From positions 46,353 through 110,352 of the forward strand of contig JAZURV010000004.1 in NCBI GenBank assembly GCA_045606425.1: a DNA stretch of 64,000 bases, given 5' to 3'. This stretch comes from Candidatus Enterousia sp. Its GTDB lineage: Bacteria; Pseudomonadota; Alphaproteobacteria; Rs-D84. The position numbers and the translations under genes were made by a program. Within the stretch, counting starts at the first letter, position 1, and every line of letters starts with the position of its first letter. Below, piece after piece: positions 9,196-63,332 of the stretch. The notes under the pieces were generated by a model, which did no database searches, was not told the origin of the DNA, and saw nothing but the letters and a program-made list of their open reading frames with translations.

Positions 9196-9977
9196 TGTAA
9201 ATCGCCAATCTCTGGTCCCGCAACAAATGTACCTGTACCGGCGTTCGTGAAGAACTGACCAGATACAGTGTCATACATACCAACGACATTGTCGAACTGA
9301 CGGCGCGCCGGAATACCATTAAATACCAATGTACCAGACGAATTTCTTATCCAAACACTATACATCTGTGCAGAAACTTTTTGAATTGCGGAAACATTAC
9401 TATTATTCGCAAACAAATATAATTTCAGTCGATTATCACTAATACCACTTTGTTGAGTAAAGGTTTTTGTAACACCATCTATATTTAGCGTAACATTGTT
9501 ATTATTATCAACTATTGTATGGATTGTGTGTTTGACGTTATTAGCAACCTCCCCCAGATTTGAATAACTGCTAGATGTTGAATTATAAAAGCTTAATACG
9601 CCAGAGCCATAATAATAATAAGTTTGACGCAAATTATAACTAGCACTAGTATCTTGACACCCCATTAATGACACATCATTTGCACCGTTTGTTTTTTTAA
9701 AATTTATAAACACTTCGCTTGCCAGTTTATCCAATATGACGCCCGTATCGATATACTGTGTACCTGTACTTTCAATGTATTCCAGTTTGGTGTAGCCTGA
9801 TTCCCATCTGACAAAATGATAGCCTGTTTTTGCTGGGGCGGTTGGCGGAGTTATATTGTCACCAGATTGACAACTGGTTGTTGATACAACCTGTCCGTTC
9901 GCATACCAATTTATCGTGTGTGCAATTGCGCCGGCACATATAAACATCGCAAATAAAAACATCAAGATTTTTTTCAT
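9192..9977 (-). CDS. secreted protein: N-terminal B-repeat domain plus conserved ~190-aa C-terminal domain (LEYIESTGTQYIDTG ... GMYDTVSGQFFTNAGTGTF)
   Basis: Paralog of 44619..45410. Has the GYHFVRW B-repeat signature. ATGA overlap with the downstream gene. Confidence 0.7.
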   Translation of the reverse strand: MKKILMFLFAMFICAGAIAHTINWYANGQVVSTTSCQSGDNITPPTAPAKTGYHFVRWESGYTKLEYIESTGTQYIDTGVILDKLASEVFINFKKTNGANDVSLMGCQDTSASYNLRQTYYYYGSGVLSFYNSTSSSYSNLGEVANNVKHTIHTIVDNNNNVTLNIDGVTKTFTQQSGISDNRLKLYLFANNSNVSAIQKVSAQMYSVWIRNSSGTLVFNGIPARRQFDNVVGMYDTVSGQFFTNAGTGTFVAGPEIGDLQ

Positions 9978-42967: not shown

Positions 42968-43399
42968 ATGGCAAAAAAGAATTTTAAAAACATCGTTTTG
43001 GACCCTAAATATACACCGAAAAAATCGGAACCATATATGTGTGACGAACAACTGGCATATTTTTATCAGTTGTTAAACGCGCAACGTGACGAAATCATGC
43101 ACGACCGCGCAGATGTATTAAACGATGTTCGCATGGCTGAAAAAAATGAATCTGCCGGGGTTGGTGACGAACAGGACCAGGCATCTGCAGAACAAGAAAT
43201 CACCATGAATTTGCGTATGTCTGAACGCACAACAAATTTATTACAGAAAATAAATGCTGCGTTGGAAAGAATTGAAAATGGCACATACGGATTCAGCGTG
43301 ATATCTGGCGATGAAATTGGCCTGCAAAGAATGTTGGCACGCCCATTGGCAACAATGACAGTCGAAGAGCAAGAAGAATACGAACAAAAGAAAAGATAA
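42968..43399 (+). CDS. dksA: DksA/TraR-family RNA polymerase-binding protein lacking the Cys4 zinc finger
   Basis: Coiled-coil with the DxxDxA-type tip (GDEQDQASAE). In the C-terminal region, GTYGFSVISGDEIG..ATMTVEEQ replaces the CxxC..CxxC pairs. Confidence 0.8.
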   Translation: MAKKNFKNIVLDPKYTPKKSEPYMCDEQLAYFYQLLNAQRDEIMHDRADVLNDVRMAEKNESAGVGDEQDQASAEQEITMNLRMSERTTNLLQKINAALERIENGTYGFSVISGDEIGLQRMLARPLATMTVEEQEEYEQKKR

Positions 43400-43402
43400 A
43401 AC

Positions 43403-43427
43403 AACCGCCACACGGCGGTTTTTTTTG
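43403..43427 (+). terminator. dksA intrinsic terminator
   Basis: AACCGCC-acac-GGCGGTT plus T-run. Confidence 0.75.
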
Positions 43428-43447
43428 TGCGGATTACAGAAAGCAAG

Positions 43448-43547
43448 TTCCCCTCCTGCGGAGGGGTGGTCTTTTGTTGTCAAGGTTGTTCGTTTTTTTT
43501 CAACCCTCCCCGCCACTTCGTGGTCCCCCCGCCCCGGGCGGGGAATA
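43448..43547. repeat. GC-rich palindromic MITE-like element, copy A
   Basis: Left arm TTCCCCTCC-tgc-GGAGGGG; right arm CCCTCCCCGCC...CCCCGCCCC-ggg-CGGGGAAT. Confidence 0.6.
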
Positions 43548-43644
43548 CAAGCAAGGTTTCGGAAACAAAGTACACCGAAACCGTTGCGGTATACGCCAGA
43601 GCGCAAGCGCATGGCGAATTTTGCACCGTTCTTGGCACAGTCTA

Positions 43645-43868
43645 AATTCCCCTCCCACGGAGGGGTGGATTGGCGGAACGCAGTGACGACAAGACGGGGA
43701 GGGGTCAAATAAAAATTTATTATTGAATTCATTTTTTTTCATAAATAAGATGTAAAACAAGATATGTCTAATATTTTGATATGGATAAAGCGAAATATAG
43801 ATTTAATAAACTGAATTTAATTTGACCCCTCCCCGCCCTGCGGGCCCTCCCCTCCGGCGGAGGGGAAT
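43645..43868. repeat. GC-rich palindromic MITE-like element, copy B (long AT-rich centre)
   Basis: AATTCCCCTCC-cac-GGAGGGG ... GGGGAGGGGTCAAAT, an AT-rich centre of ~110 nt, then ATTTGACCCCTCCCCGCC...CCCCTCC-ggc-GGAGGGGAAT. Confidence 0.7.
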
Positions 43869-43944
43869 CTGCGATGTTCCTAAGACGACCTAAAAAAAAA
43901 GAACCCGGCAAGGGGTTCTTTTTTTTATGGAACACACACACATA

Positions 43945-44619: not shown

Positions 44620-45410
44620 TATTCAACCTCGGGCCCAGCAATAAAATTACCTGTTCCTGAATTTGTGAAAAATATTTTTGTGACAGTATCATACATACCA
44701 ACAGTATTGTTTTTTATTGCTGGTATTAAATTGTGTGAAAGATTTTCCCCATCCCAAATCTGACAATAATATATTCGACCACGAAAAGGGAATTCCATTC
44801 TTCCACTGGTATTACGTGCAAATAAAAACAAAGTATAATTGGCGAACCATTCTCCATTTGTAGGGAAAGTCCAAGTATGAATATCTTTTATAGACACCAC
44901 ATTTTTATTATAATATAGCTCGTATTTTATTCTTGTTGTATCGCCTTCTGAAATAGTAGTGACTGTTCCGCTTTCGTTTCCTCCAAAACCGATACGATTT
45001 GGCACCAACAAACGTACCAGTCCATTTTTTGAATTACTTGCGTCCCCATAGTCAGCACAACCCAAAACTGCCATATTTTGGTTAATTGTGTCTGTTCTCA
45101 TATAAGCAATTTTTACAGACGTATCTTTGTTAGGAAAATAACCAGTATCGATATATTGTATTCCTGTGGCTTCTATATATTCAAGAGGCGTATAACTTTT
45201 TTCACGCCATCCCTGAAATGTATACCCGTATTTTGTTGGTGCTAATGGTAAATTTATATCACCGCCTGTTTGGCAAGTTGTTGTGTTGTATACGCTGCCA
45301 TCAACATACCATTTTATCGTTTCTGTATCGGCGTATAATGCGGTTGTAAACAGCAACGACAATAATAACACTAATAATTTTTTCATCTCTCTTTCCTTTC
45401 GTTTGTTCAT
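44619..45410 (-). CDS. secreted protein: N-terminal B-repeat plus conserved C-terminal domain (paralog of 9192..9977)
   Basis: GYTFQGW; LEYIEATGIQYIDTG ... GMYDTVTKIFFTNSGTGNF. TAATG overlap with the downstream gene. Confidence 0.7.
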   Translation of the reverse strand: MNKRKEREMKKLLVLLLSLLFTTALYADTETIKWYVDGSVYNTTTCQTGGDINLPLAPTKYGYTFQGWREKSYTPLEYIEATGIQYIDTGYFPNKDTSVKIAYMRTDTINQNMAVLGCADYGDASNSKNGLVRLLVPNRIGFGGNESGTVTTISEGDTTRIKYELYYNKNVVSIKDIHTWTFPTNGEWFANYTLFLFARNTSGRMEFPFRGRIYYCQIWDGENLSHNLIPAIKNNTVGMYDTVTKIFFTNSGTGNFIAGPEVE

Positions 45411-50013: not shown

Positions 50014-50712
50014 CTAGAAATTTTTTAACATCAGGTCAATCGTTTTTTTATCAACTGGCAAAACTTCCCCAACCCTAAGTTTTCCAAGGCTTACAATGCC
50101 ATAGGAAATACGATGCAATGCCTTTACCGGTGAACCAATATGTTTCAAAACGATTCGAATTTCGTTCTTTTTGCCTTCGACAACAGTTATTTTCAAATTG
50201 TGTTCGTCAATTTCATTTATCTTCATCGGGCGATATTTTATTCCATCAACACAAACACCACGCCGCGCCAGATTTAATCCCTGTTGTGTATATTTATCAA
50301 CCGTCGCAATATAAGTCCGTTCTATATGGTTTTGTGGCAAAGACATTTTACGCGCAAATTCCCCGTTATTGGTCAACAACAACAACCCTGTTGTTTTGAA
50401 ATCAAGTCGCCCAATATATTTCAAATTTTTATATTTTTTATCCAAAACATCATATATAGTCCTGCGCCCCATTGGGTCACGTGTTGTTGTCATTGTATTT
50501 ATTGGTTTATGGAAAGCGTATACTTTTATATCATCGTCTTTTTTTATCACTTTGCCATTTACAGAAACAACGTCACCATCATTCACAAAAAACACAGGCG
50601 TATCTACAATCACACCGTTCACAGCGACAGACCCTTTTTTAATTAAATCTTCTGCCCCGCGCCGTGATGCGACCCCAGAATCTGCGATAAATTTAGACAA
50701 TCTTTCATTCAT
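50014..50712 (-). CDS. S4-domain pseudouridine synthase (RsuA/RluB family)
   Basis: MNERLSKFIADSGVASRR S4 start at 50712, plus GRLDFKTTGLLLLTNNG. Confidence 0.85.
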   Translation of the reverse strand: MNERLSKFIADSGVASRRGAEDLIKKGSVAVNGVIVDTPVFFVNDGDVVSVNGKVIKKDDDIKVYAFHKPINTMTTTRDPMGRRTIYDVLDKKYKNLKYIGRLDFKTTGLLLLTNNGEFARKMSLPQNHIERTYIATVDKYTQQGLNLARRGVCVDGIKYRPMKINEIDEHNLKITVVEGKKNEIRIVLKHIGSPVKALHRISYGIVSLGKLRVGEVLPVDKKTIDLMLKNF

Positions 50713-55568: not shown

Positions 55569-56321
55569 CTAATTATTCGGTGTGTTAAATGTCCAACCCG
55601 TAAAAACTTTGCCCGGTATATGTATTGCCGATTTTGGCGTTCTGATATCACCACCGTATGTGACAGAACCTGCGTCATTTGCCGCGATATCGCTTTGTTC
55701 TGTATTATCCCAATTTATCTGGATTGTGTTCCCGGTACATTCTGATGCACCATCGTTTGACCAATATCCTTCTGGGCATGCTTCGATACCAAAAGTCGTT
55801 GTATGAACGACCGACTGGTTGCTGGAATTACAAATAACCCCTGATTTCCCGGGACAATACGAACCCGCCGTACATACATTTATTTGGTTGTAATATGCAT
55901 ACGTACCACACGCCGTTCTGCCGCGTAAATAATAACCAGGTTCCACAGCATACCAATATGTCAACCATGTCCTGTCATATTCTTGAGTGACAGTGTTATA
56001 ATAAGCATAATCTACCAGCATCCCCCGCCTGTCTTTTAGATGACAAGAAATTCTGCAAGATTTTATACTATTTTTTCCGTTAGAATAACCATGACAACCT
56101 ATTATTCCTGTGACATCATAAATATCTGGAAATGTTGTCCGAATGTGTCCTTCAACAGATGGGCAATCGTATGCGATATCATCACCCGGGCAATATTTAA
56201 AATCCGGGCATTGTTTACACAAACCGTTATCATTATAATATTCTGCATCACACACGGCGGCAAATGCGCCATTGTTGAATATCCCCAACAAACAAAATAT
56301 TGCGAAAAACACCCGTCGCAT
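55569..56321 (-). CDS. Cys-rich secreted protein with conserved C-terminal B-repeat domain
   Basis: Signal peptide; many Cys (CKQCPDFKYCPG, CTAGSYCPG); C-terminus IQINW..DIAANDAGSVTYGGDIRTPKSAIHIPGKVFTGWTFN. Confidence 0.75.
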   Translation of the reverse strand: MRRVFFAIFCLLGIFNNGAFAAVCDAEYYNDNGLCKQCPDFKYCPGDDIAYDCPSVEGHIRTTFPDIYDVTGIIGCHGYSNGKNSIKSCRISCHLKDRRGMLVDYAYYNTVTQEYDRTWLTYWYAVEPGYYLRGRTACGTYAYYNQINVCTAGSYCPGKSGVICNSSNQSVVHTTTFGIEACPEGYWSNDGASECTGNTIQINWDNTEQSDIAANDAGSVTYGGDIRTPKSAIHIPGKVFTGWTFNTPNN

Positions 56322-62048: not shown

Positions 62049-63095
62049 TTACTGATTTGGTGTATTGAATGTCCAACCGGTGAAGACTTTACCAGCCTTA
62101 TGCACGGCTTTGCGTGGTGTTCTGATATCACCACCGTATGTGACAGAACCCGCATCATTCGCGTCAATATCAGATTGGTCTGCATCCGCCCAAGTAATCG
62201 CAATTGTGTTGGCTTGGCAGGATGGTGCCCCAGCAGGAATCGCATTGAACACCGCAGCACGCCAATCGGGGTTTTCCACACCCATGTAATCCCGAAGGTA
62301 GTCCGCACAGATGTCCGGGCAGTATTCTGCGCAACTACTCGAGGAGCTGTAGCGATTAAAAAACACCCAGGGAGCAGATACGTTCTGGCTGACGCCATTA
62401 TCATCTGGCAAGCCAGTATCCGGTGTATAACTATCAATTTGACACCAACAATTCGAACCGTTCGTAAAGTCCGCGGTCACAGTATTCGATGTGTCACCCC
62501 TAGAAGCTGCACTGCCTTGTGTACTACATACTGCTTTACCTGTTATACGACCTTTCTCAGAAAAATCTATACCAAAGGTATCCGTTGCAGTTATTCCGTA
62601 TCTTGTTTGGCTTGTTGAACCTGCACCGTTATGATATGTGCCACTGTGGTCTATGTATCCGTATGCGGTGCCCTGGCTGTTTCCGATTATGCTTGCAAAA
62701 TCTGGGTTGCCTGGGTTAAGTGTATACCCCGTATCACAGGTTGCGATGGCGCAGGTGTCGGTTTCATTTGCACCCTGATAATTTTTACCAGTTACACTTG
62801 CGATATGGGAATTTGCCGGAAAGTCAGATACTGTACAGGCTTTATAACACTGGTCGGTACTTGTTGCACCATCATCACTGTTTGGAAATCCGGTCGGACA
62901 GTCCGTATAACTTGCACTTGTTGTTGCTGTTCCGCTTGATACTTTCAAATTCGTAACATTTGCCTGACCAACATAAGTATAGTCTTCCGCCATTACCCCG
63001 TTACTGGGAAATGAATTTGAACTGTGTGATGGTTCTGCGATTGCTGGCACTGCAACCAATGCCAATATTGTTCCAAAACTAAATATTTTGTTCAT
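62049..63095 (-). CDS. large Cys-rich secreted protein with conserved C-terminal B-repeat domain
   Basis: Signal peptide; Cys-rich variable body; C-terminus IAITW..DIDANDAGSVTYGGDIRTPRKAVHKAGKVFTGWTFN. Confidence 0.75.
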   Translation of the reverse strand: MNKIFSFGTILALVAVPAIAEPSHSSNSFPSNGVMAEDYTYVGQANVTNLKVSSGTATTSASYTDCPTGFPNSDDGATSTDQCYKACTVSDFPANSHIASVTGKNYQGANETDTCAIATCDTGYTLNPGNPDFASIIGNSQGTAYGYIDHSGTYHNGAGSTSQTRYGITATDTFGIDFSEKGRITGKAVCSTQGSAASRGDTSNTVTADFTNGSNCWCQIDSYTPDTGLPDDNGVSQNVSAPWVFFNRYSSSSSCAEYCPDICADYLRDYMGVENPDWRAAVFNAIPAGAPSCQANTIAITWADADQSDIDANDAGSVTYGGDIRTPRKAVHKAGKVFTGWTFNTPNQ

Positions 63096-63119
63096 AGGTT
63101 ATCCCCCTTTCTTTGCTTT

Positions 63120-63332
63120 AAAAAACCACCAAAAGAAACTGGTGGTCGGGGAGTTCAAAAATCAGATTATCATCGATCCCGTTGCCTTTAGATATACGCT
63201 AACGGCTCCCCAACCTTGTTATGTCAGGGACAATAACGGTGCAAAAACACCGATAATAACACAAGATACGATGCCTTCGCACCGGATAATCTGGGCTTTT
63301 GACGACCCCGAACCCAATTCCCATTGGATTCA
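63120..63332 (-). promoter_or_regulatory. structured 5' leader RNA L4 (divergent family member)
   Basis: Promoter TTTACA, 17-nt spacer, TATAAT (-10 at 63338-63343). Same architecture as L1-L3 with different primary sequence. Terminator CCACCA-loop-TGGTGG-T6. Confidence 0.6.

Follow-up and report, generated by a model that had tools for sequence, protein, structure and literature searches.

The leader L4 (63331-63120, minus strand) is the fourth copy of a structured mRNA leader of approximately 200 bases in the window, i.e., in the entire stretch of 64,000 nucleotides that was analysed, and it is a true member of a large, undescribed leader-RNA family in uncultured gut Alphaproteobacteria. The family comprises at least 60 copies in gut alphaproteobacterial MAGs (Candidatus Enterousia and relatives), and its members share an architecture in which one switch strand, seg2, has two possible partners. 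Sequence comparison supports the view that both of the resulting folds are under selection.

Distribution and organization of the leader family

A pattern scan identified 45 loci, all of them in gut alphaproteobacterial MAGs. These are labelled as Alphaproteobacteria, Candidatus Enterousia, Rickettsiales or proteobacterium, with one contig labelled as Bacteroides fragilis, and the names of samples and isolates point to guts of various animals. The collecting pattern fixed only seg2, a TATA and seg3, and the conservation of these elements is therefore partly by construction; helices A and B, P1, P2, V, K and seg1 lay outside the pattern. Subsequent model searches gave 54 strong copies plus the L4-type copies, including tandem pairs that the pattern had missed. 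The viral contigs searched contained no family copy, and thus nothing places the family on phage. A literature search for the switch sequence and for Enterousia returned nothing on this leader RNA.

The leaders are approximately 190-220 nt long and follow a common plan. The 5' part consists of an extended -10 promoter, the hairpins P1 and P2, the latter with the segment A5' in its loop, the segment B5' and the hairpin V. In the middle, an A-rich linker is followed by seg1, seg2, hairpin H and hairpin K, which exposes B3' in its loop, and the 3' end is formed by A3', seg3, a terminator and the ribosome-binding site. P1 has at least 5 bp in 45 of 45 copies, with unrelated sequences, and a -10-like TANNNT box is located at most 22 nt upstream of P1 in 44 of the 45 members. 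In all copies, GGU opens seg2 and RCC(A/U) follows seg3. The family has a conserved 15-nt H loop (GAAUAUAUUGAAUAA); the L026 subtype has a GCAA tetraloop hairpin instead, and the L4 type a different loop. A terminator hairpin with a U-run that contains the RACC of seg3 in its 5' arm is present in 42/45 copies. The start codon lies 34-61 nt beyond seg3 in most copies, which leaves the downstream genes without space for a separate promoter. These genes encode secreted repeat proteins, Cys-rich secreted proteins, XRE-type HTH proteins, a UvrD-like helicase and proteins of unknown function.

Several loci show further arrangements of the element. Two complete leaders are placed in tandem before one gene in L019 (4575-4928), L011 (6200-6506) and L010 (396-766). 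The orthologous copies in L004, L005 and L041 have neither a U-run terminator nor a downstream ORF and may be free-standing small-RNA versions of the leader element. The minus strand of L026 (5560-7560) carries an array of sRNA-Xcc1-like domains that are richer in GC (25.6-30.7 bits), some of them back to back and without a 5' half, and also one complete leader of a third subtype, which precedes an XRE-type HTH gene.

The L4 leader

The L4 promoter (63366-63338, minus strand, as for all L4 features below) combines a -35 box TTTACA, a 17-nt spacer and a -10 box TATAAT with TG ahead of it (11/12 matches), and transcription is predicted to start at approximately 63331. The 5' hairpin P1 (63331-63310, GAAUCCAAU-GGGA-AUUGGGUUC) is followed by P2 (63309-63293, GGGG...CCC), which carries the a1-like site A5' (63302-63297, UCAAAA) in its loop, and by the b1-like site B5' (63293-63285, CAGAUUAUC). 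The variable region (63284-63237), which is modelled as an insertion within V, forms two hairpins in L4 (CGGUGC-GAAG-GCAUCG at 63284-63269 and CGGUG-UUUUU-GCACCG at 63252-63237) versus one in L1-L3. Further downstream, seg1 (63230-63223, UCCCUGAC), the putative anti-antiterminator, competes for the switch strand seg2 (63215-63206, GGUUGGGGAG), which begins with GGU. Hairpin H (63205-63179, CCGUU-loop-AACGG) and the K hairpin region (63178-63155) come next, and the latter holds the b'-like loop B3' (63171-63163, GAUAAUCUG) and the a'-like junction A3' (63160-63155, UUUUGA). The 3' partner of seg2 is seg3 (63153-63144, CUCCCCGACC), whose last four nucleotides (GACC) are the start of the terminator stem. 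The intrinsic terminator (63147-63120, GACCACCAG-UUUCUU-UUGGUGGUU, then a U-run) has a predicted energy of -12.2 kcal/mol and precedes the ribosome-binding site AGGGGGA (63108-63102) of the regulated gene, which occupies 62049-63108 including this site, starts with an ATG at 63095 and encodes a secreted protein of 348 amino acids.

According to the original prediction, L4 carries every element of L1-L3, and all the pairings that it named are indeed present at the proposed places. In DNA letters, these are the two parts of the long-range helix (TCAAAA with TTTTGA, corresponding to A5' and A3', and CAGATTATC with GATAATCTG, corresponding to B5' and B3'), the internal hairpin (TCCCTGAC at 63230-63223 with GTTGGGGA at 63214-63207), the competing pairing of seg2 with seg3 (GGTTGGGGAG with CTCCCCGACC), the terminator (GACCACCAG with TTGGTGGTT and the T-run) and the AGGGGGA ribosome-binding site. 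Energy minimisation of L4 yields exactly the long-range bipartite helix together with the seg1:seg2 hairpin and the terminator, at an energy of -89.6 kcal/mol (z = -6.6) that was equalled by none of 200 shuffles. L1 folds with the same architecture (z = -5.0). The motif GGTTGGRGR occurs nine times in the window versus 1.15 expected, with eight occurrences within L1-L4 and the ninth inside a coding region. A candidate fifth copy at 50066 (GGTTGGGGA) sits inside a coding region and was rejected as a chance match.

It had further been proposed that the 5' half of L4 has little primary-sequence likeness to L1-L3, and plain MAFFT does misalign this half. The placement of the helices was examined with covariance models. 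Model R1 was built from typical copies without any L4-type sequence; in the window it found L1-L3 at 105-119 bits, L4 at 14.1 bits (E = 0.019, with E-values of the covariance models being rough because of a short calibration) and nothing else. R1 begins its alignment of L4 inside the enlarged variable region and leaves the 5' half out of register because of the insertion of approximately 45 nt in V. The same model aligns L024 and L039, two orthologues of L4 from other genomes that are 78-82% identical to it by BLAST, from end to end; in both of them, helix A has 6-7 of its 7 pairs, helix B 6-7 of 7, seg1:seg2 7-8 of 8 and H all 4. Model R2 was built from 45 copies in other genomes, including L024 and L039, and contains no window sequence. 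It recovered L1-L3 at 101-116 bits and L4 over its full length (63311-63141) at 45.5 bits, with an equally rough E of approximately 2.5e-10, and placed helices A, B, V, seg1:seg2 and H of L4 at the model positions of L1-L3, as the structural claim demands. Its one further match in the window, weak and 60 nt long, was judged spurious. In the alignment that R2 gives for its matches in the window, paired cells make up 92.8% versus 37-46% in slid controls and both-sided changes occur in 20/35 pairs, although alignments used for such counts are fitted to the model and lean towards its structure.

The other leaders and the controlled genes of the window

The three other leaders of the window are of the typical type and are also located on the minus strand. 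L1 (9998-10182, 102.6 bits with R2) precedes the gene of a secreted protein of 261 amino acids, and L3 (56338-56518, 115.8 bits) that of a secreted protein of 250 amino acids. L2 (45588-45786, 101.1 bits) also has a secreted-protein gene downstream, which begins approximately 205 nt further on, beyond a GC-rich repeat insertion. The C-terminal 59 amino acids of the L4 gene product are 73% identical to those of the L3 gene product. The exact sequence of the L4 gene product (348 amino acids) was absent from the protein index searched, and a Pfam search with it gave no match even at E = 5.

The four controlled proteins have in common a module of approximately 45-60 amino acids (...GGDI..P..P.K.G..F.GW...). 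It is C-terminal in the products of the L3 and L4 genes (55569-55750 and 62049-62230), where the two modules are 73% identical, and N-terminal in those of the L1 and L2 genes (9860-9977 and 45290-45330). Pfam matches to the Listeria-Bacteroides repeat are borderline. The window also contains five copies of a GC-rich palindrome, CCCCTCC-N3-GGAGGGG, versus zero expected. Two of them lie between the L2 terminator and the L2 gene (45431-45563), and three (43450-43865) flank AT-rich stretches near 43380-43900. The palindrome resembles a REP- or MITE-like insertion, and similar sequences come after the leaders in L003 and L039.

Two mutually exclusive folds

Fold I, the minimum-energy fold of L1-L4, comprises the bipartite long-range helix (A and B), V, seg1:seg2, H and the terminator. 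Fold II comprises P2 and the seg2:seg3 helix, which encloses the hairpins H and K and deprives the terminator stem of four bases. Since K uses the same bases as the full helix B, the difference between the two folds is global and extends beyond the switch.

Across the family, 93.8% of Fold I cells are paired versus 73.8% in shuffles, and the covariation score of 0.527 compares with 0.174 in shuffles (reached by 0/500) and at most 0.083 in slid controls. Changes on both sides are seen at all eight pairs of helix B, where all four Watson-Crick types occur at every pair, and at five pairs of helix A, and the seg1:seg2 helix is 97.8% paired, with G-U variants. Independently of any alignment, cognate 5' and 3' halves pair with a mean of -20.7 kcal/mol versus -14.2 kcal/mol for non-cognate halves, and for each 3' half its own 5' half is the best or a near-best partner. 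For Fold II (P2, seg2:seg3 and K), 96.6% of cells are paired and the covariation score is 0.182 versus 0.099 in shuffles (0/500). P2 covaries, with G:C replaced by A:U in 16 sequences, and so does K (UA in 32, AU in 18 and CG in 2). Fold I counts 127 G-U pairs against 12 A-C mismatches and Fold II 54 against 6, and this approximately ten-fold excess shows that the structure belongs to the RNA of the leader strand.

The switch itself exists in several versions. In the typical subtype, seg1 is CUCCAAC, seg2 GGUUGGAGG and seg3 CCUCCAACC, and in the L4 subtype the respective segments are UCCCUGAC, GGUUGGGGAG and CUCCCCGACC. The third subtype, found in L026, has CCCCG as seg1, GGCCGGGGUG as seg2 and CACCCUGGCC as seg3 and keeps both pairings, and an intermediate form in L022 and L031 (CCCUGACC, GGUUGGGGGG and CCUCCAACC) makes use of G-U pairs. 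Between the typical and the L4 type, position 7 of seg2 changes from A to G, and its partner changes from U to C in seg1 (CUCCAAC to UCCCUGAC) as well as in seg3 (CCUCCAACC to CUCCCCGACC). The original prediction of an altered switch sequence on the pairing partners was thus exceeded, as the change is three-way and includes seg1, seg2 and seg3. Together with the subtypes that keep both pairings, it also lends support to the earlier suggestion that the alternative pairing is under selection. Within the typical subtype, seg2:seg3 is near-invariant and it changes jointly with seg1 between subtypes, so that its covariation rests on few subtype switches and may correspond to few evolutionary events. 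In addition, the region next to L1 (10287-11125 of the window) is 83% identical to positions 3-841 of L024, which places the two loci in orthologous positions; the related MAG carries an L4-type leader where the window carries the typical L1, which implies that leader subtypes are exchangeable at one locus.

Before the 3' arm of the terminator is made, Fold I is 4.5-11.5 kcal/mol more stable than an enforced seg2:seg3 fold, and in the whole leader it is 10-19 kcal/mol more stable, with the proviso that these energies ignore pseudoknots and that P2 and helix A form an H-type pseudoknot.

Likely kinship with C4 and sRNA-Xcc1 RNAs

The family looks like a distant, re-purposed relative of the phage C4 and sRNA-Xcc1 antisense RNAs. 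At gathering thresholds, Rfam searches of the window and of 18 loci returned only tRNA and tmRNA. Below threshold, sRNA-Xcc1 (RF02221) is the sole consistent match; on the domain from seg2 to seg3, it scores 34.2 bits in L1, 24.0 bits in L4 and 30.7 and 25.6 bits in the L026 copies, against a gathering score of 53. The domain has the closing stem, the two internal hairpins, the junction of approximately 6 nt and the RCC tail of the sRNA-Xcc1 fold. The C4 model (RF01695) gave no match at E values up to 10 for the L4 region, 1 for the L1 region, 5 for eight loci and 2 for the whole window; as a reference, a real c4 locus scores 66.7 bits with this model. In the canonical c4 locus L051 from a Klebsiella plasmid, in which Rfam annotates c4-a1b1, isrK and C4 before symE, a1 (UUGACC) and b1 (UCACUGAC) are located upstream, with the loop of the second hairpin as b' and the junction as a'. 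The order and topology of A5', B5', B3' and A3' are the same as those of a1, b1, the b' loop and the a' junction, and the corresponding collinear helices A and B are found, covarying, in nearly all copies. Because of the sub-threshold sRNA-Xcc1 match, the c4-like site order and topology and the GGU and RCC(A/U) motifs, the leaders are most aptly regarded as a C4-like domain in which pairing of the a1/b1 type in cis is conserved and which has gained a competitor strand and a terminator.

C4 RNAs of phages P1/P7 (RF01695, RF03163; Weinberg 2010, PMC2864571) share with the family the closing stem, the first hairpin, the b'-loop hairpin, the single-stranded a' junction, the 3' RCC tail and the GGW start of the domain. 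They also share the two upstream sites that can pair with a' and b', arranged as a1, b1 ... b', a', and the location of the domain in the same-strand leader of a downstream gene. The L026 subtype comes close to the canonical C4 also in its hairpin H with a GCAA tetraloop. In contrast to C4, where it has 17 bp, the closing stem of the family has 9-10 bp, and the family adds the upstream competitor seg1 and an intrinsic terminator that overlaps the closing stem. It is furthermore chromosomal, multi-copy and found in Alphaproteobacteria, and precedes secreted-protein genes, whereas C4 precedes phage antirepressor or toxin genes. The family also seems to differ from C4 in having no consistent a2/b2 sites at the ribosome-binding site: no excess was found for a' (p = 0.40), and L4 and most other copies contain none. 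Complementarity of the b'-like K loop to the own start region shows a weak excess and reaches at least 7 nt in five copies versus 1.9 expected (permutation p = 0.025-0.057). A minority of copies (L1, L034, L011, L024 and L026) have a K loop that could pair over 7-9 nt with the ribosome-binding site or start codon of the same copy, e.g., CCUAUUU versus AAAUAGG in L1 (9978-10010 of the window), which resembles the c4 b'/b2 pairing.

Published work locates sRNA-Xcc1 ahead of symE in Xanthomonas integron cassettes and ahead of an ORF6N gene in the APSE phage; in Xylella, it forms tandems with C4 and isrK. Its stem, AUACA-type hairpin, second hairpin, UUUUGAG junction and RCC tail are similar to those of the 3' domain of the leaders, as are the same-strand gene downstream and the occurrence of tandem arrays. 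Different from the leaders, it is described as an 88-nt trans-acting small RNA (PMC2996969), and a 5' half, a competitor and an attenuator are not described for it; this comparison is based on the Rfam model and the published description. BLAST searches with the RF02221 consensus and with the L026 copy retrieved no useful sRNA-Xcc1 member, and a match in Novosphingobium was rejected as a chance match in a coding region. SymE loci on plasmids carried symR, isrA or the canonical c4 locus, not sRNA-Xcc1.

The Group 1 C4-like small RNAs of Acinetobacter baumannii (PMC5320573) are likewise a large, chromosomal multi-copy family, are embedded in longer transcripts and have a GGW start and variable a' loops. 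They differ in that they reach the Rfam C4 model, and cis a1/b1 pairing and a terminator switch are not described there.

The arrangement also resembles classical attenuators that use a terminator, an antiterminator and an anti-antiterminator, as seg1:seg2, seg2:seg3 and the seg3-containing terminator are successive and mutually exclusive. Unlike classical attenuators and riboswitch platforms, the leaders have no leader peptide, known ligand, tRNA or known binding protein, and their sensor part is a bipartite long-range helix with copy-specific sequences. The CI immunity RNA of phage P4, studied by Deho, Ghisotti and co-workers, is reportedly a small RNA that is processed from a leader. It is said to pair with upstream and downstream sites in the same leader, to control in this way premature transcription termination and to act in trans on nascent transcripts. 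P4 CI RNA is likened here to the leader family by description, not by sequence.

Proposed mechanism and alternative explanations

These features probably identify the leaders as self-promoted transcription attenuators, with a C4/sRNA-Xcc1-type domain as their 3' half. The terminator stem shares bases with the alternative pairing in 42/45 copies, as in an intrinsic-terminator attenuator, although seg3 and the terminator overlap by only 4 nt. We infer from this organization that the leader can support both termination and read-through. In Fold I, A5' and B5', the equivalents of a1 and b1 of c4, would pair with A3' (a') and B3' (b') of the domain, and seg1 would hold seg2, so that seg3 would be free to complete the terminator and transcription would stop before the gene. 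In Fold II, seg2:seg3 would close a C4-like three-way junction with H and K, the RACC bases would be withdrawn from the terminator stem, and the polymerase would read through. The choice between the folds is presumably taken during transcription. As Fold I is the more stable fold, termination would be the default and read-through would require that Fold II is stabilised by some factor. This factor could be a protein, a cut by RNase P at the GGU with which seg2 starts, or a C4-like RNA that is processed from the same locus and occupies A5'/B5' in trans.

It is also conceivable, but rather unlikely, that the leader serves mainly as precursor of a processed C4-like antisense RNA, which would be released by an RNase P cut at the GGU of seg2, with the terminator merely ending the small RNA. 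Its b' loop and a' junction would then pair with the own a1/b1 sites and, at some loci, also with the ribosome-binding site, in the manner of phage P1 immunity, and regulation would not operate through a choice between terminator and antiterminator. The match of architecture and complementary-site order to the canonical c4 locus speaks for such a precursor, and so do the tandem domain arrays, as known for sRNA-Xcc1 in Xylella, and the 7-9 nt of K-loop complementarity to the own start region in a minority of copies. RNase P excises C4 RNAs at a GGW motif (PMC5320573), and the GGU start and RCC(A/U) of the family are features reported for this processing of C4 and of the Acinetobacter C4-like RNAs (PMC5320573). 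However, an a2/b2-like site at the ribosome-binding site is missing from L4 and from most other copies, there is no room for another promoter of the downstream genes, and a mere precursor leaves the conserved seg1, its three-way covariation and the overlap of seg3 with the terminator unexplained. Antisense processing and attenuation are compatible with each other and not mutually exclusive.

A riboswitch for a small molecule or ion appears quite improbable. In this case, the pseudoknotted four-way junction (P1/P2/A/B/V/H) or the three-way junction of Fold II would be the aptamer, and ligand binding would tip the leader towards terminator or antiterminator. Two exclusive folds, a terminator platform, an H-type pseudoknot, the conserved 15-nt H loop, tandem arrangements and the absence of an Rfam family at threshold would all agree with a riboswitch. 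Nevertheless, the nearest relatives are antisense RNAs, the diverse downstream genes share no metabolic or transport theme, which makes a metabolite riboswitch unlikely, and the H loop differs between subtypes, with a GCAA tetraloop in L026 and a different loop in the L4 type, so that a ligand pocket at this site is not conserved. The least probable explanation, to which we give almost no weight, is a DNA-level repeat such as a MITE, a REP or an attC-like site, the palindromes of which mimic RNA helices. Many copies exist, the window contains other GC-rich palindromic repeats, and sRNA-Xcc1 was first found in integron cassettes. On the other hand, mismatches are not strand-symmetric, as the ten-fold excess of G-U over A-C demonstrates, and the orientation and distance of the element to the upstream promoter and to the downstream ribosome-binding site and gene are constant. 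The helices covary with unrelated sequences, which is unlike repeat copies, and the copies are dispersed among housekeeping genes and form no cassette array.

Conclusions

The leaders add a large, well-supported structured-RNA family to uncultured gut bacteria with reduced genomes and scant functional annotation. In their attenuator interpretation, a phage-type antisense fold of the C4/sRNA-Xcc1 kind would be built into a terminator switch before chromosomal secreted-protein genes. The very strong covariation that backs the cis pairing of a1/b1-like sites also bears on the role of these sites in the classical systems, and the leaders are small (approximately 190 nt) and varied enough for direct in vitro testing.

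A more speculative idea, which we regard as very doubtful, is that A5'/B5' and B3'/A3' constitute a private bipartite address for each leader, different from copy to copy, by which a C4-like RNA released from one locus would bind and flip only nascent leaders of its own locus to read-through. If this were true, every surface-protein gene would have its own self-sustaining RNA ON/OFF switch, and phase variation would be possible without any DNA change. It would also provide a function for the a1/b1 sites of the C4 type, for which we did not find a role described.
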